Source: a virus
Lineage: Duplodnaviria > Caudoviricetes
Reading direction: 5' to 3' (one strand)
IMG/VR virus record: IMGVR_UViG_3300021400_000063
DNA length: 64,000 bases
Shown: piece by piece, positions 4,385 through 60,828 of the stretch
How positions within the stretch are numbered: position 1 is the stretch's first letter
Layout of the letters: each line of letters starts with the position of its first letter
Translations under genes and position numbers: made by a program
The notes under the pieces: model-generated
The model's input: the letters and a program-made list of their open reading frames with translations, nothing else
Databases searched by the model: none
What the model was told of the DNA's origin: nothing

Positions 4385-4651
4385 TATATTTAATAAATGT
4401 ATATGTAACAATTATGTATATATACATTTATTTGTAACTGGATTAATCCCAGTTTCTTTAATGAACTGATCCCTAGTCAACTGTTTGGTGTCAACTAAAG
4501 GGAATTTAGTTCCATGATATTCGAACGGTACACTAAAATAATAAGTGTACATTTGGTTATCATTCATAGTTTTCACCTCCTTGGTAAAAGCTATATTTAG
4601 AGAGGGGTGCTACAACACCCCTCTCTATCTTTTATCCATAATTATAATATA
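4385..4651 (-). repeat. ~270-bp duplicated cassette, copy 1 (promoter, leader hairpin, 51-aa ORF, 3' hairpin)
   Basis: Near-identical to 26559-26827. Confidence 0.95.
4412..4567 (-). CDS. 51-aa small protein, copy 1 (MNDNQMYTYYFSVPFEYHGTKFPLVDTKQLTRDQFIKETGINPVTNKCIYT)
   Basis: GGAGGTG RBS; reading frame conserved with the copy at 26588-26743. Confidence 0.8.
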   Translation of the reverse strand: MNDNQMYTYYFSVPFEYHGTKFPLVDTKQLTRDQFIKETGINPVTNKCIYT

Positions 4652-4692
4652 TAAAAAATAAGAGTAGACCACAAAGGTCTACTCTTAATATA

Positions 4693-7600
4693 TTATTTAT
4701 TTATTTTAACTTTTCGTTTAGATTCAGGAATATCTTCACCAATTTCTTTTAAGAAATCTCTAGCAGTTTTCTTAGTAAATTTATAAAGAATAGTTCCTAA
4801 GAATTGATACCAAATACTTTCAATCATACGAGCATTGATAGAAATCCAACTGAAAATACCATCGAGTTTGTTACCACTTTCTGTATATGGTTCTTTACCC
4901 TTTGGTACAACTGTTGAGTTAATAGTTTTAAGAGATGAATTCAATGCGATTTTATCTCCGGTACCCATTTGATCTTCATGCCCAATATAATATTCAATAA
5001 CAATACCTTCAAGACCGACTAATGCTCCATTAATACGAGGATCAGTTTTATCTTTATTTACAGTTGTAACTTCTATAGTTTTTCGTTTTTCAGAAGTTTT
5101 ACCGGTAAATTTTTCTTCATCAATAATTTCACGTTTATGAGTCTTAATATATTCGTTAACAAATTTAGCCACGGTAGGAGACATTTTATCAATTGGACAA
5201 GTCCAATAAACTTTCATGTCTTTTATAACGCCTGTTAAATTAGCTTTAGGAGTTTTATGAATCATACCAGCTAATACATTAGAATCAATTCCTTGGAATA
5301 AATCGTTAAGAATATCTTCTTCAGCATCATCAGATGTAGAATCATTAAGTGCTCCAGTATCATCAAATACAAAAATAGGATCTCCCAACATTACATGGTC
5401 TCCAACTTTTTTATAATCAATGATTGTAGCTTCATTAGCATTTGTAATAGAAATTTGCTTACACTTAGTAAAATTCATCGTCAATTTCTCAGAAAATTCC
5501 TGAGTAATTAAGTCAGCATCATCTTCTGTATAAGCACCTTCCATAATTGCTACCATAGCGTTTGCAGTCTGAGTATATATTAACTCACCGGTAATAGGAT
5601 CTACTTTAAAGAATCGTTTATCAGCAACAATTACATCACCAGCTTTAACTTTTGCACCTTCTTTAACAAAGCAATTATATACGGCTTCATTAAATGCATC
5701 TGAATTTTTAAGTAACATATTATTAAAATCTAAAACTTCTTTAGATCCGTCTTTATATGTTATATAAACTTTCTTTCCAACTTCATCAACTTGTGTAATA
5801 GTTCCGTCTTGCTTAGCACATTTAACGAAATTTTCACCACACTGATACTGAATAGTTCTTTCAACACCAGTACGTACACAAGGTAATGATGAACCTAATA
5901 AACCACCGACATGGTTATTCTGTCCAGAAACGAATGCAATACGAGAAGGGTCATCCTTAGTATTAACGAATGGAGTCAATGCTTCTGCAATCGTACCAAT
6001 ATCATTCAAACTAAAATTATTCTTATCTTGAGGTTCAATGAATCCAAGAGTGTTAGAAATTTTAGGATTAAGTGTTAATTCTTTAACAATACCAGCATTT
6101 GAGTTATCTGGTGTAGAAACTCCGAAAGTTCCAAAATAACTAGGATCGTAAGCACGTTTCTTTGTAGTAAACGCCTGTTCCATCTTAGTTCCACCAGGAC
6201 CTTTAAATGTTGTTAATCCCATATTACGAATTTCTGCAACAGGATTCAAACAATCGTAATTTTCAAGAATTTCAGTACTGTAAACTTTAGACATTACAGA
6301 ATCGATTGGAATAGTCATTGTAACTTTTTTTCCAGATCTTTTCTTGAAAGTTGTATATTGATCGTTTAATACTTGATACAAACATTGTGAGATTATTTCA
6401 TTAGAACGAATACGATAATTAGTAATATCAGATTCAGATTTAACCTGATTATCTACAAGTAAATCGTTACAGTATAAGAAAAGCTCACATAAATCTGTAG
6501 GAAGACCAAGCTCTTCAAGAATCTGAAGAGTTTTCATGTCTAACATAGATTCACGAGCTGTAACCCAACCCTTTACAATGTTACGTGTACCATATTTTTC
6601 TTGTGTAAAATCAATATATAAACCAGGATTGTTAAGATCTTCATAATTATATTGCTCAGTACTCATTTGAGTTAAACCATTTAATAAAATGGTTCCATTA
6701 ATAGGATACTGATTATAATATAAGAATCCATTTGCAAATCTTACACAAAGTTTATTAGTATTAACTTTACGTTTTTCACTAAATTCTATTTCGTTTTCAG
6801 GGAAATATGAAATAACTCTATCCCAACCAAATAAATATCCTAAAAGAGAAATCAAAGGAACTTTCTTACTCTGAATTTCAATCATAGAACAAATTCTACG
6901 TTTAGGAACTTTTACTTTTTCTATGAATTCAGAAATTCCAGAATCATTAAGTGTATTTTGTAAAATCATAATAATTGTACTAGATACAGATCCATCCTTT
7001 CTCACATCAATAGAATAAAGAGATTTAGTTGTATAGTTAATTGCTATAGGAAGAATATATGGTGGAAGAACATTATCTTTAAATCCTGTATTAATATTGT
7101 GTTCTTTAATTTTTTCTCTAATAACACTCTGATCAAAATAAACAATAACATGTTCACCATATTCTGATCCATCATTAATATTAAAGTAGAAATATTTATC
7201 AGCCAAAATATCATATTCGATAGTAGTAATATAATCTACATTATTTTTAGAACAATCACCACGTTCGATACGAATGTTAGGATTATCGACAAAATATTCT
7301 GTTACTAATCTTCTTACAACTTCAGATACTTTATTAAGAGTATAGCCGTTACGCATAACCTGATAAGAGTTGAGTTGAGTAGTGATATAAACTTTATCGG
7401 AACCAATTTTTACAACAGGTTTACGAATAAGCTGATTTTTAAGATATTTAGTACGTCCTTGGATTTTCATAAATCCATTTTCATCAAGTTTAGGAACATT
7501 GAATTTCAATTCATGTTTCTTTTTAAATTGATCTTCGAGTGTAAAATGATAAGTTAATCTATCGTTAAATTGATCGGATGTATCATCTACTTTAATATTT

Positions 7601-21930: not shown

Positions 21931-24900
21931 TTAAATATGTTCTACACGATCACCAATATCACCCATTCTACCCTGATTCATATAATTTACAGTACCAGGA
22001 TATCCACATACACGTCTAGAAACATCCATCTGATGAGGATCTGTATTTCCACAACATGAACATTTCCAAATACGTTTATTTGTAATAGGATCACGAGCCA
22101 TATCAATATGATCAAAGTTTTTACAAATGTAACAATAGTCTGGTTTAGTATTTGCTTCGAAATACATAATATTTTTATAACCGGCTTCAATTACTTTGTG
22201 GAAAGCTTTCATATTATTGATGATGTTTCTTGAGCATTCGAAATAAGAAACAGCTCCACCAGTTGTATACTTCTGGAATGGTGCTTCGAATTCTAATTTA
22301 GAAATAGCATCGATCTTTTCTTTTACATTAATCTTTTATACCCTCAGTTTCCTGATATTTTAAAGGGAATAGACTATCTCATTAATTGTTAAAAACAATT
22401 ACTTTGCACTTCGCAATAAGGAATTTCACCTTAAAGCTACTCTACTCGGTTATTCCGAATTATATAAAATAATTCATATCCTTTCGATAGTCGTTACACT
22501 TCTATTCAATTCGTTCAAATTTATACCCTTTAGCACTTTTGGATCTACCATTTAAACAATCACTTACTGCTGCCGGATGAATACCATGAGAGATGGCAAA
22601 ATCAGTAGCATTTTTATGAATTTCGGTATGTCCATCAGGATATATAGCTTTGAATTTAACAGTTCGAGATGTGTTTTTAGGTTGATCTTGTTTAGGAATC
22701 CAAATACAATTATCGGGATCATAGTTACCATTTACATCTTTTCTTTCTAACGAAACATTATGTGATCCAATTTTATTAGCTAATTCTAAATATGAATCAT
22801 ACATTGCATCGTAAAAATCGATAAAGTTTTTAAATGCTTCACTATTTATACCCCTATTAACATACCTATCAGCATGTTCGTAATTTGGATTAGTGGTTCT
22901 AGTACGCATTGCTTGCCATCTATCATAAAATACAGGATCTAATGTTTTTAAACCCTTTCCACAAGATTTATGAAAAATTCCTGCAGATCTATAGATTGTA
23001 GCACCAAGCATTTCTTTGCGTCTACCACATTTTTGACATTCCATGACGTAGTATTTACTTATATAAGGATACTTTCCAGTATGCCTTTTTTTAATTATAT
23101 CTACGCATTTGTAGTCACCCATCACATCTCCAATTGAAATAACATAAAACGGATGCATATTAAAACTCCATAAAATAAAATATATTATTTATGTTACGAA
23201 CTTCTTTTTAATATACATTATGTTACGAATTGAAAATTTAGCACGGTATTTCCATGTCCTTAAAAAGGATTTAGGATCTCTTACCACTTTAATCTTTCGA
23301 TTTAGTTGACCGTTAGCCGGATATTAATCGTATCCGACACCCTAGATTTCTAGGTTCACAAAGTTTTCCATATGCATTTACATACATAGGCCACCTCATT
23401 ATTTATACTCGTATAATGTTTATGCAACATTTAAAAGTTGATGGTACGAGTTAGTCACGTAATCTTTATCGGTAATGCCTTCAATAATACCATGACGTCT
23501 TTGTAAAGCTTTTGCGAATTCAAATGTTGCAGATTCTTCAGGAGTTCCATAAACAGAATAACCATAGTCATCTTGTTTATTCCATTCTTCACACTTATCA
23601 GCCATATGTTTAACAATAGAAAGAGCAAAATCTCTAGCAGATGGATCTGTATGAGGTACACCTTTAAGAGCCATAACAGTTTCATACAAACCTACATAAC
23701 CTAATGATGTAGTAGAATATCCGCCAGTTAAATATTTATCGATTGTTTCACCTGGTTTAAGGCGAGCAATTGCTCCGAACTGCCAATGTACTGGAGAAAC
23801 ATCGGATTTAGTACCAAACAAACGTTTTTCAATACGCTGTTTATGTGCTTTATGACAAAGTTCAAGACGTTCATCGAGAAGTTCCCAGAAATCTCTTCCA
23901 GTTTCTTTAGAAGTAAGAGCAACATCAGGAAGATTAATTGTAACAACGCCTTTGTTGACTGTGGGCGTAAACACATAGTAGACTATCTCTTCAATAATAA
24001 ATGTAAATTTATCATTGTCGTGCGCTTCGAATAGTATCAATCTCTATTCTACAGGGCTACACTCATCACCCTTAGTCGTTACACCTTTATTCTTAAAAAA
24101 GAATACTTGGCACGGTATTATTTCTTTATTCAATAAAGAACCTTCACCGTTAGCAATGGCTTATGTTTTTAAGCGACCATCACACCCCTTTGATATGGGT
24201 TCACACGATTTAACGACGGCTCAACTGCGTTAGTTAACCGTCCCCAGAATTTATAATTACCATTTTCATCTTTCCAAGGAGAAAGGAATGAACGACAGTT
24301 ATGACTAAGGAAAAAGTTTGCCATAAAATGGCCTGTTTCAGTAGTAACATCATAAACAAATTCTGGAGTTTCAACACATTCTTTTATAACAACACGTCTA
24401 GCAATAGGTTTATACTTATATTTTTCATTGCCGGTGTCAAGGCTATCATAAATACAAAGTTCTTTTCCAAGCATATCTTCAACTTTACATTCATATGCTT
24501 TTTCAGGATCATAGAATTTTCCTTCTTCAGAAATGTCGGCAACAATCATAGGATGATCATTTGTAGCATAAAGAGAATGATATTCTTCACCATTTTTAAG
24601 AATTGTAAGTTCATACATCTTAAAACTTGATCCGACATTTTTATTCATCATAGTACATTTAACAAATTTTTGAACACTATTGTCGAAAATTTCAATATTA
24701 AGATTCTTAAGATTTAAATCTTTATTAGGATTACCAGTTTGTCCAAATTGATCTTCTTCTTTAAGATTGAATGTATTTTTAATACTGTTATACATACCAC
24801 CGATACAACCAACATATGTTTCGCCATTAATTTTATACATAACATCTGTATCAGGATGTACAGCTCCCATACAGGCAAATACATTTCCTTCTTTAAGTTC

Positions 24901-53468: not shown

Positions 53469-54154
53469 TTAAAGATCATAGATTTTTGTAGCAATCATAT
53501 CAGCATGATGGAGAAGTAAAACTTCAGGATATCGTTCACTCATCGTACTAAAATTCTGCATTTCAGTATTAGAAACACCGAATACACCTCATATGATAAG
53601 CGATAGCAATTTGCCAAGGTTCCGGTATTAATTCACCAACACCTTCAATATTTAATAAACGTCTTAAGCTTTCAGCACCATGTTCAATTCCATTATACCC
53701 ATTATTATAAGCATATTTAAATGAATCGTCGCCTTTTTTATCATCTTTTACAAGTTTGTATTTGCCAACTTTACAGATATCATGGAACAAACATGCTATT
53801 GGATTAACGTCAGAAGCTTGTATTCCATAATGAATTGAAGTTCTTATAGCTGCTAAATATACAGCTAATGAATGGTCTATTAAGCCTCCTTTGTAAGCAC
53901 CATGATATTTAGTAGAAGCTGGTTCATTAAAGAAAGTGCAATATTTAGTTAAGATTTTAGATATAGCCTTTTTAATTAATTTATCTTCTTCAGCATTTAA
54001 TGAATAAAATAAATCGTTTTTCAATAATGTTAAGATTTTACCATTAGAATCATTGTTTCTTTCTTCATTAGATAAATGCTTACAAATCTTTATTTCATTT
54101 TGAATCCGAAATTCTTTAGATCGTCCTTTTTTTTGATTCTAAAAAGTTTTTCAT
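53469..54154 (-). CDS. HD-domain phosphohydrolase requiring two +1 shifts (or a frameshifted pseudogene)
   Basis: PASTKYHGAYKGGLIDHS, FHDICK, HG.ES, YHM-G, LHHADM; frame breaks at AGG 54127-54125 and 53589-53587. Confidence 0.8.
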
Positions 54155-54158
54155 ATTT

Positions 54159-54803
54159 TTACTCCTTAAATATATCTATTTGATGTTTTCGATAAAGTTT
54201 AGATTCATCTCTTGTTCCAGTTTTCATTTCTGCTACACACTGTAATAATTTAGGATATTTGCGTGTAATTTCTTCATTATCCGAAAGACTAGATTTTAAT
54301 TTATAAAATGGTTTATTTGTAAATGCTATTGGATATGACTCATTACGTGATGGATAAGAAATCGTAATTATGTATGTTTTCCTCCATCCTATACGTTTAT
54401 CCGGTTTCTCATCATAACACCAAGTGTTTAAATAATCCCAGTTAAATTCTTTATCCCAATAAGCCCATTTTTTATATACCCATTCTGCAAATTGCTTAAG
54501 ATTTTTAAGTTTAGCAGATTGTTCCATTGCTTCTGTTACAGTCATCATGCTTGCAGCTGGTCTGATTGTTACAGTATTAATGTGTAGTGAAATAAAATCT
54601 AAAATTTTCGATCCGGTGGTTGTGAAGATATTTTTAATAGATAAAAATATATTTTTAAAGAATAATATTATTTTTGGAGTTTTAATATCATGTATAAGAT
54701 ATTTTAATATACATTTATTCGCACTCATAACCATATATTCTCCCATTATACGTCGTTGATATTCATCCCATGATTCTTTTTCTGGATTATATTCTTCGTT
54801 CAT
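54159..54803 (-). CDS. Hypothetical protein
   Basis: 214-aa ORF with RBS. Confidence 0.65.
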   Translation of the reverse strand: MNEEYNPEKESWDEYQRRIMGEYMVMSANKCILKYLIHDIKTPKIILFFKNIFLSIKNIFTTTGSKILDFISLHINTVTIRPAASMMTVTEAMEQSAKLKNLKQFAEWVYKKWAYWDKEFNWDYLNTWCYDEKPDKRIGWRKTYIITISYPSRNESYPIAFTNKPFYKLKSSLSDNEEITRKYPKLLQCVAEMKTGTRDESKLYRKHQIDIFKE

Positions 54804-54815
54804 AAAGTTTCCTCC

Positions 54816-55133
54816 TTATTTTAAACAAAGTTTTTCATACCAAGTTTTTCTATTTTCTCTATCATAAATATAAATAGAGTATAAATAATCTTTAGGATTA
54901 TCAACAATGTTATTTTTTATTATTAATTGTGCTGCTTTATAAGCAGCTTCCCATGAGCATTTAATTGTATAATAATACCTATTATCGATTCCATTTCTAT
55001 GATAAGAGATATCTCCGAATATTTGATATAATTTTCCAAGGTCTCTTTTACTTTCTCTAAGTAAATAGTTTACTTTATTGTAAAAACCTGATGGATTACG
55101 GTGATGTTCACCATTTCTAAATTTTACAGCCAT
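54816..55133 (-). CDS. Hypothetical protein
   Basis: 105-aa ORF with RBS. Confidence 0.65.
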   Translation of the reverse strand: MAVKFRNGEHHRNPSGFYNKVNYLLRESKRDLGKLYQIFGDISYHRNGIDNRYYYTIKCSWEAAYKAAQLIIKNNIVDNPKDYLYSIYIYDRENRKTWYEKLCLK

Positions 55134-55136
55134 AAT

Positions 55137-55700
55137 TTAAATCCTCCTTAAAAATCCTCTTTTAGGATAATGATCTATTTTAATTATATTATCTATAAGA
55201 GGATTTATTTGTTTTAATAAAAATTTTTCACAAATTTTATATTCTGTTTCAGATAGTCTGATATCAGTGAAAGTTTTTTCACAAAACGTATCTCGATAAA
55301 CTATTAATTCTGGTAATCTTTGTATAAATTTAATTTTTTGAAAATTATCGTATACTGAACAATATTCATTTATTATTTCATTCATATTGGAATAACTATA
55401 GTTTCGATATCCGAAACATAAATGATAATATATTATGAATAAATTATTCTCTAACTGTCTACGATCTTTTCCAAAGAATATCATAGTTTCTTTTAATTCA
55501 TTTAAGAATTCTGAATGAAATCTGATTAAATAAAACCCTTCAAATTTACAATAATTAAAAAGTTGCATTTTATTTTTAATCATATTAGATGGTTGATCAT
55601 ATACAGGTTTTATTAGTTGTAATGTAGTTACATCTTCATTAAAACCATAATATTTATATTTTTCATATAATTCATCATTGTGCTGTTCTTCGTACATCAT
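55137..55700 (-). CDS. Hypothetical protein
   Basis: 187-aa ORF. Confidence 0.65.
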   Translation of the reverse strand: MMYEEQHNDELYEKYKYYGFNEDVTTLQLIKPVYDQPSNMIKNKMQLFNYCKFEGFYLIRFHSEFLNELKETMIFFGKDRRQLENNLFIIYYHLCFGYRNYSYSNMNEIINEYCSVYDNFQKIKFIQRLPELIVYRDTFCEKTFTDIRLSETEYKICEKFLLKQINPLIDNIIKIDHYPKRGFLRRI

Positions 55701-56013
55701 CCCAAAACTTCCTCAAATTGTCAGTTGTATCAAGATCATAAAGCATTCTGGCTACATTTGATACATGTCCTTCTGTAGAGTTTTCCATAATTCTTGTAAC
55801 AGTTGATAATTGTGTCACTGTAATATAATCTAAGGAATTATGTGCATTCGCAATATCTGCTAAATTTTTATAAATAGATTTATTATTAGTTATATGACGA
55901 GCTACAAAAATTTTAGCTTCTTTTTCATTCTTAGCTTTAGTTATAAATACCATTTCTGTTAATCTTATAGATACTAGATAAATTTTATTTTCTTCATTAA
56001 TCTTTTCGTTCAT
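55675..56013 (-). CDS. Hypothetical protein
   Basis: 112-aa ORF in operon. Confidence 0.65.
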   Translation of the reverse strand: MNEKINEENKIYLVSIRLTEMVFITKAKNEKEAKIFVARHITNNKSIYKNLADIANAHNSLDYITVTQLSTVTRIMENSTEGHVSNVARMLYDLDTTDNLRKFWDDVRRTAQ

Positions 56014-56383
56014 AATAGTTTACCTTCTTTCCTTTAAATAATTTATTTAAATCTTTTTCTAGTCTATCTGGATTTAAATACATTGTTTCCATCCCACAAG
56101 AAAAAGCTCCACCACGTCTTGTTAATATAATTTCATAAACAGTATCATCTTTTCTATTGAAAATTACATTAGCACAAGTATAACCAGGAATTCTTAAATA
56201 CCAAAAATAATATTTTTCACTATCTTTATTATCAAGATAAGTTCCTATAATAGGTTCACCATCTTTTGCGAAAATATATGTATTCATATATTCTAAATTA
56301 CATTGTTTAGGATCTCTAAATTTATCCATATATTCTGTAATTTCACATACTAAATCGTTACACATAAGTATTAAATCCTCCAT
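55997..56383 (-). CDS. Hypothetical protein
   Basis: 128-aa ORF at head of operon. Confidence 0.65.
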   Translation of the reverse strand: MEDLILMCNDLVCEITEYMDKFRDPKQCNLEYMNTYIFAKDGEPIIGTYLDNKDSEKYYFWYLRIPGYTCANVIFNRKDDTVYEIILTRRGGAFSCGMETMYLNPDRLEKDLNKLFKGKKVNYYERKD

Positions 56384-56765
56384 AAATTTAAAGAGTAATA
56401 TATAAATTTATATGAATTAAAATAACTATTTATAGATTTTTAAGATATCTATTTTTAAAAATTAAATATTTATTTTACAATGTAGTAAAGTACAATAGTT
56501 TAAAAATAATTGATTTTTGATTTTAGATATTATAAAAATGATTAAATTATTTAAAAATATGTTTAAAAATGTGCATTTTTTATAAAAATATTATAACATA
56601 TAGATATACTTGTGAGAAAATAACGCGTTTTTAATTAAGTATATTAAATTCACAATCTTATTCCGAATTTCAGCATTTTTATGATAGCAATTGATTGAAA
56701 TTGTATGCTTTCGGAATAATAATTTTTTACATACATTACCACAAAGTAATGTATTAAACATATAT

Positions 56766-56855
56766 GGGTGAGCAGACTGTGTTTGGTGTGCAGTGTTTCA
56801 GATTGTGCTTATGCTAGTCTGATTTCGGCGTGCGGTTCAAATCCCACCTCACCCG
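56766..56855 (+). ncRNA. tRNA-like RNA with long D stem and extended central arm
   Basis: Acceptor GGGTGAG/CTCACCC, T loop TTCAAAT, D stem ACTGTG/TGCAGT, central stem TCAGATT/AGTCTGA with no 7-nt anticodon loop. Confidence 0.7.
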
Positions 56856-56865
56856 CTTTATTTAT

Positions 56866-56938
56866 GTCTCTTTACTTCAGTTGGTAGAAGGGTAGACTGT
56901 TAATCTATTGGTCCTAGGTTCGAGTCCTAGAAGAGACG
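56866..56938 (+). tRNA. tRNA-Asn(GTT)
   Basis: Cloverleaf; anticodon arm GTAGA-CTGTTAA-TCTAT. Confidence 0.92.
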
Positions 56939-57109
56939 TATTAATTTGGAATCTCGTATTCGTCTCAACAAATTATAGGGCGTGTGATGATGGATATGAA
57001 TAAAATACATTAAAAAAAAATAATTAGTGTATAATAGTTATCGTATTATCGACACTAAATAAAATCTACTCCGAAGATGCATCGGAAAATGTAAGATTTC
57101 AAATTATTT

Positions 57110-57198
57110 GGAGCGTTCGCATAGTCCGGTCGAGTGCAGTAGTCTTGAAAACTACCGATTCCGCAAGGTTTCCGAAAGTTCGAATCTTTCACGCTCCG
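57110..57198 (+). tRNA. tRNA-Ser(TGA)
   Basis: Cloverleaf with long variable arm; GTAGT-CTTGAAA-ACTAC; G73. Confidence 0.92.
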
Positions 57199-57368
57199 TC
57201 CAAGTTGTTACATATAACACTCTGGTCTAGTTGACAAAAGATTATATTAATCTTTGTAATTTTACATAAACCTCTCTTATATAAACATTAAATTCTCCAG
57301 CACTAATGTCGTACATTGTGCATTTATTTTTCTTCCATCTAATTATAGATGTTTATTATATATTTCTT

Positions 57369-57440
57369 AGGTGAGTAAATTATTAGGATATAGATTTACT
57401 TATCTATATAAGTTGTAGGTTCGAATCCTACTCTCACCAA
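57369..57440 (+). ncRNA. D-armless tRNA-like RNA (family 2, copy B)
   Basis: GGTGAG/CTCACC acceptor, linker TAAATTATTAGG, stem ATATAGAT-TTACTT-ATCTATAT, T arm GTAGG-TTCGAAT-CCTAC. Confidence 0.72.
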
Positions 57441-57670
57441 TCTCGGGTTGCCTTTTACGGATTTATATCCGTTGTGATCCGGCACGTGTGGTTACCGACG
57501 TGAGGAAACGGTAAAATAGTAAATCTCGTACGAGTGGAACCCTGGGTTATTCCCAGGGTTCCTATATTTTGCAAAAGGTCTATGATAGTTGATATATTAT
57601 AATAATGAATAAGGAGAATGTAAAAAGTTAAAATAAATCAAATCTCCTTATAATCGAGGAGAAAATTATT

Positions 57671-57937
57671 ATGATTATCGATCTTACAAAAACTATAAAT
57701 AATCTTCATATTGAGGAGAATGAACTTGATAATGAAAAGATTATTAGTTGGTTCTTTATGAATAAAAAATTCATAGAGAAATTAGTTAGTAGCTATATCC
57801 AAAATTTTGGATGGGCATTTGGAGGTGCATCTGAAATGTATCTCGATATTAAGCAGCTTTATAAGGAGCATCCTTATAATTTGGAAGATAAGTATGGTGA
57901 AGAATCACCATCAATTTATATTCCAATTGCTGCTTAA
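57671..57937 (+). CDS. Hypothetical early protein
   Basis: Promoter, RBS and terminator. Confidence 0.7.
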   Translation: MIIDLTKTINNLHIEENELDNEKIISWFFMNKKFIEKLVSSYIQNFGWAFGGASEMYLDIKQLYKEHPYNLEDKYGEESPSIYIPIAA

Positions 57938-58005
57938 ATAAGGGAGAATAAAAATCTCCCTTATTTTTTTTCTTATATATTATATTTATAGGAGGTAAGT
58001 GTAAT

Positions 58006-58329
58006 ATGCTTACATTAATATTTGGTAATAAAAGTAAAGAAGATGCTCTTGCTATGAGAGATCTATTCTGTTCAAGTGCAACAGGAATTCCAGGATTTAT
58101 TGAGAATGAAATTTTGATTTCATCTCAATTGACAAAATCTGACGGAACAGTATTTGAAGATGGTGAATCTGAATACAATGTTTGTGGTAAAGATTACAAA
58201 CATGTTGTTATGGTTTGTTTATCTAGTGATAATCAACCGGAAGGAACACCAGAATTTGATTTTGGAATCGATTGTTCAGATCAGGATATGACTAAATATC
58301 TCGATTTGCTTAAAAACTTGAAAGGATAA
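58006..58329 (+). CDS. Hypothetical early protein
   Basis: Promoter, RBS and terminator. Confidence 0.7.
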   Translation: MLTLIFGNKSKEDALAMRDLFCSSATGIPGFIENEILISSQLTKSDGTVFEDGESEYNVCGKDYKHVVMVCLSSDNQPEGTPEFDFGIDCSDQDMTKYLDLLKNLKG

Positions 58330-58424
58330 CAATCGATTTTATCTATAGAAAGAGAATGCATTAGTATTCTCTTTCTTTTTTTATTACTATTGATATATTT
58401 AAATATATTAAGTGAGGTGAAACT

Positions 58425-59120
58425 ATGGTAAATAAATATTCATTAGATAAAAAATTAAAAGACAGAGAAAATGCTGCTGTTTTAAATGAAATTGAAGATG
58501 CTAGACGATTTGTAAGATATTTTGTAAATCTTATGGAAGGTATTTTAAATTATGAATATGACGAATTAAAGTCATATTTTGAAGAAGATAAAACTGAAGT
58601 CGATATACGGATAGTTGAAAATCGATATGAATTAGTAACTGCTGGTATGAAAAGTTGCTGGATATCAGCATGTGTTAAATTATGTCATGAAGATTATACA
58701 TATCCTAAGTTAAAAGTTGTTGAATTTAAAGTTTATGATAAATTTTTCAATTATACGATGAATATTGATCGGTTTATTTATGGTTCTATAGATGATGAAG
58801 AATTTGTTACCGATTATTTGCAAATTATAAAAAGTGAGATATTTAAAGATTTTAAATATAAATGGTCTTATAATAAAGATAAAATCTTTAAACGTTATAT
58901 TATGGATAAGAATATTACTCCTTCTGAGTATATTATTGGATGTATAAATAAATATATTTATGATTGTATTATTAAGCCTAAATCTAAAACAATGACTTAT
59001 GACGAATTTATAAATTCAGAATTTAAATTCGATGTTGATAAAAAGACTCAACGAATATTCAATAGATATTTCTTTGAAAATATTCCAAATATAAAAAGGA
59101 GAATAATAACACATGCATAA
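58425..59120 (+). CDS. Hypothetical protein
   Basis: 231-aa ORF with RBS. Confidence 0.7.
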   Translation: MVNKYSLDKKLKDRENAAVLNEIEDARRFVRYFVNLMEGILNYEYDELKSYFEEDKTEVDIRIVENRYELVTAGMKSCWISACVKLCHEDYTYPKLKVVEFKVYDKFFNYTMNIDRFIYGSIDDEEFVTDYLQIIKSEIFKDFKYKWSYNKDKIFKRYIMDKNITPSEYIIGCINKYIYDCIIKPKSKTMTYDEFINSEFKFDVDKKTQRIFNRYFFENIPNIKRRIITHA

Positions 59121-59586
59121 ACGTAAATATGAAAGATTTCTACTGAATTTATTGATTGAAAGAACGTTATTTATTTATAATATAGTTCTTTCTACTCAAT
59201 TTAATATAACGAAAAAATATAAGAATAAATGTATACGTTTATTAGTAGATATCCAAAAATATTTCAAAAATATAAGATATCAAAATTTTGATGTAAAATC
59301 TGTAAAATATGAATTTAATCAATATAAAATTTTAATGAATAAAACTGATTATTTGTTGAAAACATTTGATAAAATTGATAAAAATAAAAATATCAGAAAT
59401 ATTTGGTGTATAAATTTCAGCAAATATAATACTGAAGGACAATTTCCAATGTTTTATAATCCTAATTATGATAAAAATTATATTAGAGATTTTGTTAAAT
59501 ATTTCATAAATTTAACTAATATAAAATCTTTGATAGATGAAGAAATGAAAATTATTTATTATACTAATAAGTTTTATTTATTATAA
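59113..59586 (+). CDS. Hypothetical protein
   Basis: 157-aa ORF. Confidence 0.6.
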   Translation: MHKRKYERFLLNLLIERTLFIYNIVLSTQFNITKKYKNKCIRLLVDIQKYFKNIRYQNFDVKSVKYEFNQYKILMNKTDYLLKTFDKIDKNKNIRNIWCINFSKYNTEGQFPMFYNPNYDKNYIRDFVKYFINLTNIKSLIDEEMKIIYYTNKFYLL

Positions 59587-59618
59587 AAATAGGGAGAAAA
59601 ACTCCCTATTTTTTTATA

Positions 59619-60828
59619 TTATTCTAAAAATGCTACTGTTACAGCTTTTTTCGACCTAGTTATAGCAGTGTAAGTCCATTTGTTATAGAAGTCTAGAGTT
59701 TTTCCATGTATATCCATTACTACTAACGGATGTTCATATTCAGAACCTTGACTTTTATGTACTGTGAATGCGTAACCAAAATCAATCATACCAACTTCAC
59801 CGAGAGCATCATCTTCAAGTTCATTATTATATAATTCTTCAATAAATGCTTCTTTACTAGGATCTTTTTGATACTGTTCAAATATTTCTCTAAAACATAC
59901 AGAATTAAAAACCATATTAGGATCTCCACAATCCATTAAGAAATCTGGAGTAAATTTAAGATTTAATAATTCCATATCGTTTTTATCTTCTATATAAGAA
60001 TCTTCTTTAACGTAACCTGTTAATCCATTAATAAGATAAATAGGAACGTCATTATATTCTAATTCGTAATTATAATTGTTTAAAAGACATAAAACTTTTT
60101 CACCTTTTTGAGGATAAATAGATTTATAACCTTTTTGTTCTCTAACCATTTGATTTAATATACGGCGTGTTTTATTAGCATAACATAAGATAACCGAATA
60201 ATCTCCAAGATGATCTTGAACTTTATCAAATGTAGTTACTAATGAGTTTTTACAATATCCCATAGGGAGTGGTTCACCATTACGAGCTTTCATAGCAAGA
60301 TCAAGAATTCCAGATTCATCAGACTGTCTCATAACTTGTGTTAAGAAAACATCCAGATTATTTGGATCTTCAACATACTTATTTGTACCGAAAACAGGTG
60401 GAACCTGACCAGGATCCATAAGTAACATAGTCGGTAAACCAAATGAAAGTATATCATTAAGCATAGCTTCATTAACCATTGAAGCTTCATCTATTACAAT
60501 TAATCTTATATTTGAAGGAACTCTATGCTTTTTATTAAATAAAAACGAATTTCCTTTTTTATAAACTGTATAAAATGTTTTATGAATAGTATTAGAGGGG
60601 TTTCCTTTAAGACGTAGAACCAACGATGCTTTAGCTGTTAAAGTTGCAAATATTACATCATTAATTGGTATACCTAACATCTTAATTATGGTATTTACTG
60701 TTGTTGATTTTCCTGTGCCTGGCTAAGCCACCAAGAGCAAATACCTGTTGGTTAAAACTATCAACAAAGTACCATTTGATTGCTTTCTTAATGGCTTGAA
60801 GCTGTCCGTCATTAAATTGGATAGCCAT
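59619..60828 (-). CDS. Dda/RecD2-like SF1B helicase with a +1 frame break inside Walker A
   Basis: MAIQFNDGQ...GGLA-[A]-GTGKSTT, TIH, VIDEASM, DPGQVPP, QVMRQ, YAFTVHKSQGSE, YTAITR. Confidence 0.88.

Follow-up and report, generated by a model that had tools for sequence, protein, structure and literature searches.

Interrupted genes in the window

The DNA considered here is a 64,000-nt stretch of ~28% GC phage DNA (IMG/VR record IMGVR_UViG_3300021400_000063; Duplodnaviria, Caudoviricetes), referred to below as the window. Two genes on its minus strand are broken by extra bases: one for a Dda/RecD-like superfamily 1 (SF1) helicase, interrupted within the Walker A motif (P-loop), and one for an HD-domain phosphohydrolase, interrupted twice, at sites termed 2 and 3 (Table 1). 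An earlier note on this DNA reported the three +1 breaks, with an AGG codon in the 0 frame and a glycine codon (GGN) in the new frame at each, and every coordinate and sequence that it gave is confirmed. Its explanation, programmed frameshifting at a slowly decoded arginine codon as in yeast Ty1, is partly supported for the helicase, where it misses a coding gap that resembles T4 gene 60, and is not supported for the HD gene. Comparison with relatives suggests that the helicase break is the shortest allele of a variable gap that ribosomes may bypass, and that the HD breaks are probably recent insertions.

The helicase gene has a strong ribosome-binding site (RBS; AAGGAGGTGA) upstream of its ATG. 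Codons 33–36 (GGT GGC TTA GCC) are followed by the extra A and then by GGC ACA GGA AAA TCA, and the GGC reached in the +1 frame encodes G37, the following glycine of Walker A. Taking AGGC as a single step yields a 402-aa protein with GGLAGTGKST, and the predicted peptide across the gap is ..FALGGLAGTGK (..QVFALGGLAGTGK). This joined protein has a Walker A motif, an AAA_30/AAA_19 core and a UvrD_C_2 domain, which identify it as a Dda/RecD-like SF1 helicase; matches to Pfam AAA_30 (residues 5–186) and to the Dda-like helicase family phrog_325 (residues 3–397, E 1e-84) both cover the break, and G34, A36, G37, G39 and K40 are invariant in helicase alignment A1. In the 0 frame the sequence reads GCC AGG CAC and soon terminates, and the same 48-aa open reading frame (ORF) is called in other samples (P0285). 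No start codon occurs in the window between the upstream TAG of the +1 frame and the P-loop.

Table 1. Coordinates of the interrupted genes and of other features in the window.
Feature	Position	Strand	Details
Helicase, 5' part	60721..60828	-	ATG at 60828; 36 codons in the initiation frame; ends ..FALGGLA
Proposed shift site GCC-AGG-C	60717..60723	-	P site Ala GCC; A site rare AGG; extra A at 60720
Shine–Dalgarno (SD)-like GGTGG	60728..60732	-	Gly-Gly codons, 4 nt 5' of the P-site codon
Helicase, 3' part	59619..60719	-	+1 frame; GTGKSTTVNTIIK, Met50, to stop; 366 codons
0-frame tail without a shift	60682..60720	-	RHRKINNSKYHN, then stop (60682–60684); 48-aa dead-end peptide
HD-domain phosphohydrolase gene	53469..54154	-	ATG at 54154; two +1 breaks
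HD site 3	54127..54134	-	A8 run; 0-frame AGG at 54127–54125
HD site 2	53587..53592	-	ATG-A-GG(T); extra base at 53589
nrdD	21931..24043	-	Split by an insert
Insert in nrdD	22336..23419		~1.1 kb; intron-like
Endonuclease gene in the insert	22502..23188		HNH/I-HmuI-NUMOD
257-aa gene	44440..45210	+	Two ORFs in relative G002
ORF-poor region	49776..51789		Repeat arrays flank a 304-aa gene

Frame breaks in independent sequences

The extra bases recur in other assemblies. All three break sites are found again in Logan contigs of two samples from which the window may come, and the Logan data of run X4, from an independent 2019 sheep-gut study, have an unchanged helicase junction, with no X4 contig clearly spanning the HD sites. 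A 158-nt contig from a metatranscriptome library (X18) spans the helicase junction and retains the extra A. Loci L020 and L021, from European Nucleotide Archive (ENA) and Logan contigs, contain GCC-A-GGC between flanking codons that differ synonymously, and the heptamer GCC-AGG-C is thus kept in three diverged sequences (the window, L020 and L021) as well as in run X4. Four contigs that are 99.7–99.9% identical to the window (L029–L032) share the A8 run at HD site 3 and have an extra base at HD site 2. Sequencing or assembly error could be suspected because one of the sites is an A8 homopolymer, but the extra bases are found again in assemblies and studies of independent origin (L020, L021, L029–L032 and runs X1, X3 and X4), by which that explanation is effectively refuted.

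Allele series of the helicase gap

Relatives of the window occur in contigs of 250–276 kb from sheep, cattle, pig and other gut metagenomes. The reference relative G002, which is L005 among the helicase loci, is 276 kb long and 93% identical to the window. Near and distant DNA searches of a phage collection with the window gave no match, and a pattern scan of viral contigs returned G002 only. A protein search recovered many intact helicase homologues of ~400 aa together with entire clusters, defined at 90% identity, of short forms called from the internal Met50. Three such clusters have 265, 63 and 45 members. Among 15 members listed for each, the largest, which is closest to the window, includes one full-length protein (402 aa) and the other two include none. 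Interruptions were read from the DNA of 40-odd loci, and every short form read in this way is interrupted within the Walker A codons.

At least 14 different interruptions of the motif occur, of 1, 6, 9, 10, 11, 13, 14 and 45 nt, which place the downstream part in frame 0, +1 or +2 (Table 2). The window's own cluster (>90% amino-acid identity) contains GCC-A-GGC, ACG-A-GGC, two 9-nt gaps, a 13-nt gap, a 14-nt gap and two unrelated 45-nt inserts beside the intact L013 and L072; lineages at 54–70% identity contain the GGC/GGT, GGC/GGC, CTT/CTT, GGG-T-AAG and L051 alleles. In 12 of the 14 alleles the last sense codon is followed at once by TAA, TAG or TGA. At the base composition of the window, the estimated chance that a random first codon is a stop is ~8%. 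The remaining two, GCC-A-GGC and ACG-A-GGC, are both one-base gaps that begin with AGG. AGG, which the earlier note took as the constant element, is therefore not a conserved feature of these sites.

Table 2. Helicase alleles at the Walker A motif, read from DNA.
Loci	Last codon before gap	Gap	Codon at resumption
Window, L020, L021	GCC	A	GGC
L022, L023, L024, L026, L028	ACG	A	GGC
L014, L015, L025	GCG	TAAAGGTCT	GGY
L016–L018	GCG	TAACTTGTT	GGA
L001	GCG	TGATTATATAGTT	GGA
L027	GCT	TAAATTATAGAGCC	GGC
L005 (= G002)	GCT	TGA..45 nt..GAGCC	GGA
L019	GCG	TAG..45 nt..AGTT	GGA
L006–L009	GGC	TGAACTCT GGT	ACA
L064	GGC	TGAACAT GGT	ACA
L050	GGC	TAACTAT GGC	ACG
L010–L012	CTT	TAG CTT	GCA
L002, L003	GGG	T	AAG
L051	GCT	TAAAGAGAGTT	GGT
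L013, L072		Intact at the P-loop	

Five alleles end in a codon that the tRNA of the take-off codon can read. Matched pairs of take-off and landing codons are GGC/GGT in L006–L009 and L064, GGC/GGC in L050, CTT/CTT in L010–L012, and GCT/GCC in L005 and L027. By wobble rules the +1 codon GGC of the window would be read by the same tRNA as GGT, the commonest glycine codon. The 45-nt gaps contain several stops in each frame, and L005 has a 14-nt palindrome just 3' of its stop. Gaps in all three frames and 45-nt gaps with multiple stops cannot all be explained by one frameshift or by readthrough. The fixed +1 shift of the earlier note does not cover this range, and bypassing fits it better.

One distant locus departs from this anatomy. 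In L004 (6700–6860), whose helicase is 54% identical, the P-loop is intact; the position after a good AAGGAG RBS at which the gene would start is ACG, with ATT one codon upstream. Because an ATG is lacking there, gene callers begin at the internal Met.

Selection on the interrupted helicase

Both halves of the gene are under strong purifying selection. Over the 353 downstream codons, interrupted alleles of the window's cluster have dN/dS of 0.006–0.14 at dS of 0.2–0.35. Alleles that share the position of the interruption differ in the 13 codons from the gap to Met50 (GTGKSTTVNTIIK) by 0 nonsynonymous and 3–6 synonymous changes, and no start codon is available that could serve these P-loop codons. 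Upstream, the 36 codons are conserved too, and relatives differ there by 1–8 nonsynonymous and 2–15 synonymous changes. These patterns indicate that the interrupted helicase is unlikely to be a pseudogene.

The clearest comparison is between L006 and L050, which share a homologous gap at dS of 0.69, with dN/dS of 0.096 and no stop over 366 codons; their common ancestor was thus already interrupted. The two gaps differ by one base (+2 versus +1), and both keep a stop after GGC and a glycine codon before resumption. Such a change in gap length could not be accommodated by a fixed +1 or -1 shift, and a bypass from GGC to GGY would explain both alleles.

The HD-domain hydrolase gene

Reading through both breaks of the HD gene gives a 227-aa protein. 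The Pfam HD match (residues 92–219) and phrog_28876 both span site 2, and the H..HD..H..D motifs of the domain lie in one frame only after read-through. Site 3 is upstream of any family match, and the intact gene of L005 has the same start and RBS with A7. Dozens of homologues are full length (225–228 aa). At site 2 three relatives have ATG GGT, and site 3 can be aligned only in L005.

Both breaks are confined to the window's 99.7–99.9% identical lineage. Within it, L029–L032 share A8 and have ATG-G-GG(T) at site 2, that is, GGGG where the window has AGGG. Both insertions thus extend or abut homopolymers (A7 to A8, and GGG to GGGG in L029–L032). They are probably recent homopolymer-slippage insertions, and the gene may be a recent pseudogene or carry a "savior" indel, with low-level compensatory shifting at most. 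The claim that these breaks are programmed is not borne out, given a single lineage, homopolymer-like insertions and dozens of intact homologues; the HD gene lacks the long-term, multi-lineage evidence available for the helicase. In a relative outside this lineage, L025, one TGG codon of the HD gene (4496–5173) has become the stop TGA and 3 nt are deleted; the gene is thus being lost there independently.

Recoding and alternative explanations

We favour, on balance, the explanation that the helicase gap is a gene-60-like bypass or +1 frameshift cassette and that the HD breaks are recent slippage. The Dda/RecD-like gene would be interrupted in Walker A by a hypervariable coding gap past which ribosomes recode. 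In the window, peptidyl-tRNA-Ala would rest on GCC with slow AGG in the A site, move one base forward and read GGC to give GGLA-GTGKS. The 6–45-nt gaps of rumen and gut jumbo phage relatives would be crossed by take-off and landing, as in T4 gene 60; a shift with insertion would instead give products such as ..GGLADYIVGTGK for the L001 type. The window allele would then be the shortest of the gap series, with AGG standing for the stop codon. The GGTGG element, which is replaced by GGGGGT in L020 and GGAGGT in L021, is a possible stimulator like that of release factor 2 (RF2) in prfB.

Several observations weigh against this explanation. At the window site +1 re-pairing of tRNA-Ala is impossible (GCC to CCA). 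No cognate landing codon exists in L001, L016–L018, L019 and L051, where GCG or GCT would have to meet GTT, or in L014 and L025 (TCT). No significant RNA structure was found around the gaps in four alleles (z of -1.35 to +1.3 relative to shuffled sequences). Some alleles may be dead, as suggested by three N-terminal helicase variants from other samples: P0289 is a 45-nt-gap variant with TGG for TGA; P0291 has Gly-to-Glu changes and a stop (GLAETEK*) and looks point-mutated; and P0288 may have two +1 breaks (..GGLARHWVSQQQ*). For the HD gene, position 53589 is the sole difference between the window and L029–L032, and the window (WIN) branch has dN/dS of ~0.11 with no relaxed selection, both of which are compatible with a selected shift site. 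Endonuclease-driven gene conversion could also move null patches into selected genes and inflate apparent selection; the L006/L050 pair argues against such inflation. The case for a recoding mechanism is, moreover, a comparative one.

Gene conversion of this kind belongs to an explanation without recoding, in which the breaks are null mutations, the P-loop DNA is hit as a homing-endonuclease target or the active helicase is sensed by host defence, null patches are passed on by conversion between genes, and the phage can do without the helicase. The T4 dda gene is indeed non-essential, several genomes have an HNH gene next to the helicase, and indels and synonymous changes reach extreme diversity right at the P-loop; P0291 and P0288 look plainly dead, and L004 has a non-ATG start. 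Against this stand the intact downstream ORFs in listed members of the 265-, 63- and 45-sequence clusters, the low dN/dS, the absence of nonsynonymous change in the start-less P-loop codons and the long-shared gap of L006 and L050. An immediate stop in 12 of 14 alleles and matched flanking codons are also not what null mutations predict. We regard this explanation as unlikely.

The proposal of the earlier note, that all three sites are Ty1-like +1 shifts at slow AGG that tune helicase and HD hydrolase to host tRNA-Arg(CCU), is more doubtful still. Several points favour it: AGG and a +1 GGN codon coincide at all three window sites, AGG is rare (1.8 per 1000 codons, with AGA the common arginine codon), a second helicase allele reads ACG-AGG-C, tRNA-Lys could re-pair perfectly at the AAA-AGG-A of HD site 3, both HD breaks recur across several samples and selection on the HD branch is not relaxed. 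For the helicase, the maintained break and a probably slow A-site codon as a common theme (stop or AGG) survive from that proposal. Against it, ~24 AGG codons of the window are decoded normally; three of these lie in an NNN-AGG-C context, and Arg391, which is invariant in this helicase, is also encoded by an in-frame AGG, so AGG alone is not sufficient for a shift. Re-pairing of the Ty1 type is impossible at GCC and at ATG (TGA) and possible only at AAA of HD site 3. Gaps led by stops and up to 45 nt long do not fit, nor do the GGG of L029–L032 at HD site 2, the absence of the HD breaks from all other relatives and their location in or beside homopolymers; two shifts in one gene would also leave very little product. 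The apparent rule of AGG followed by glycine has a simple origin at HD site 3, where an A-run beside a glycine codon produces AGG automatically, and at site 2 the sisters have GGG; the pattern goes beyond chance only for the helicase.

When ORFs of at least 90 aa were compared between the window and G002 over 64 kb, the HD gene was the only one broken in the window and not in G002, and no genome-wide excess of broken genes was found; the helicase was not flagged because it is interrupted in both genomes. Annotation of G002 gave six tRNAs, with no tRNA-Arg and no suppressor tRNA among them. ARAGORN also reports in G002 (243277–243351; L043), beside a tRNA-Leu, a tRNA that it leaves unidentified and whose "anticodon" has two bases (ct).

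Restoration of the frame in RNA, by transcriptional slippage or editing, is very improbable. The length of the A8 run at HD site 3 approaches that on which RNA polymerases slip (reviewed in PMC5009743), but neither the helicase site nor HD site 2 is a homopolymer, slippage cannot remove gaps of 6–45 nt, and the RNA-library contig keeps the extra A of the helicase, with the reservation that minor species are invisible in a contig.

Other routes past the gap were considered and set aside. Termination–reinitiation was rejected because ribosomes would meet no start codon ahead of the P-loop in most gaps, and because a TAG interrupts the downstream frame of the window two codons 5' of GGC. Stop reassignment or a phage suppressor tRNA was also rejected, with all three stops in use, neighbouring genes long under translation table 11 and no suppressor in G002. 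Stop readthrough could serve the in-frame 6- and 9-nt alleles and fails at the 45-nt gaps with their several stops, for which a single frameshift was rejected as well.

Endonucleases and neighbouring genes

In L005, L017 and L018 the helicase is followed directly by a free-standing HNH gene (phrog_2081/3377), with 82% identity between the L005 and L017 copies, and an HNH_3 gene occupies the same place in L004. No HNH gene is found beside the helicase in the window, L014, L016 or L023. The gaps probably arose and persist by breaking the target of the adjacent HNH homing endonuclease, and throttled helicase output would be a side effect.

These phages encode further mobile endonucleases, and other split genes also occur in this genome and its relatives. 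In the window, the anaerobic ribonucleotide reductase gene nrdD is split by an intron-like insert that encodes an HNH/I-HmuI-NUMOD endonuclease, and in G002 it is a single 334-aa ORF; an Rfam search of the insert matched no intron model. The 257-aa gene of the window corresponds in G002 (L042 region) to two ORFs, with a new GAGGAGG RBS and an ATG at the split, and this split is a true gene fission, unlike the start-less helicase gaps. A further region of the window has few ORFs, with repeat arrays flanking a 304-aa gene, which accounts for the hole in the ORF map.

Relationship to known recoding systems

The closest parallel is T4 gene 60, in which bypassing is linked to the endonuclease MobA. 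As there, a non-coding gap lies inside a conserved gene of DNA metabolism, inserts fall at the same position within one or two codons, gaps of ~45–50 nt exist, and an adjacent free-standing HNH gene is variably present. Matched or wobble-matched take-off and landing codons occur in several helicase alleles. Immediately after the take-off codon, 12 of 14 helicase alleles have a stop and two have AGG, with one TGG variant (P0289); gene-60 cassettes have a stop at this place, replaced in one clade by the rare AGG (bioRxiv 10.1101/2022.08.31.505936). The AGG of the window against the stops of its relatives is the same swap. The differences are also clear. All known gene-60 bypass cassettes are in topoisomerase genes (Manning & Atkins, bioRxiv 10.1101/2022.08.31.505936), whereas the gap described here is in the P-loop of a Dda/RecD-like helicase of ~28% GC rumen and gut jumbo phages. 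The helicase gene is not split by an endonuclease, the gaps range from 1 to 45 nt with one base in the window, no significant take-off stem-loop was found in the four helicase alleles folded, and many alleles lack a cognate landing codon. No sequence relationship to gene 60 is evident, though no search was made for one.

Frameshift systems offer partial parallels. Escherichia coli prfB (RF2; CUU-UGA-C) shifts +1 at a slowly decoded A-site codon, as is proposed for the window, and an SD-like GGUGG, GGAGG or GGGGG lies 3–4 nt upstream of the helicase P-site codon; in L002 (GGG-UAA-G), tRNA-Gly can slip onto GGU. In contrast to prfB, the window has AGG and not a stop, GCC cannot re-pair, no autoregulatory logic is known, and the SD-like element of the helicase consists of the Gly-Gly codons of the motif. 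AGG-C with a possibly hungry arginine codon at the helicase recalls Ty1 (CUU-AGG-C), and an alanine P-site codon with no possible re-pairing recalls yeast Ty3 (GCG-AGU-U); since tRNA-Ala cannot re-pair on CCA, the window site resembles Ty3 more than Ty1. Unlike both, the helicase system is bacterial, and its heptamer is kept in L020, L021 and X4 and not across the other relatives.

Short hops are known from other settings. Matched codons around a stop produce a "stop-hop" in E. coli, and no natural in-frame stop-hop was known as of 2016 (Atkins et al., PMC5009743). The CTT-TAG-CTT of L010–L012 has the same arrangement as these synthetic constructs. Short inserts corrected in translation, with a slow or unassigned codon after take-off, are also found in the byp elements of Magnusiomyces mitochondria (PMC5009743), which differ in being GC-rich and numerous in each genome, whereas one gene is affected here. 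The helicase gaps may be a new form of a known type of recoding, for which comparative evidence is strong. Whether they constitute a second, independently evolved phage bypass system, with gaps of 1, 6, 9–14 and 45 nt, a CTT-TAG-CTT stop-hop and a GCC-AGG-C shift, driven by conflict with HNH endonucleases, is to our judgement evenly balanced.

Implications for jumbo phage biology

Efficient phage bypassing has so far been essentially the property of one family, T4 gene 60 and its homologues in topoisomerase genes. If the helicase gaps are bypassed, they would provide an independent graded series in which the skipped stretch grows from one base to 45 nt, landing codons are matched in some alleles and unmatched in others, and take-off is followed by a stop or by AGG; such variation would show which signals take-off and landing need. 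Recoding would then be tied to homing-endonuclease conflict in a second gene. The HD breaks caution against taking every AGG-adjacent indel as programmed. If the helicase is indeed recoded, annotators should be wary of calling this gene truncated, since it may be whole in hundreds of jumbo-phage contigs from metagenomes.

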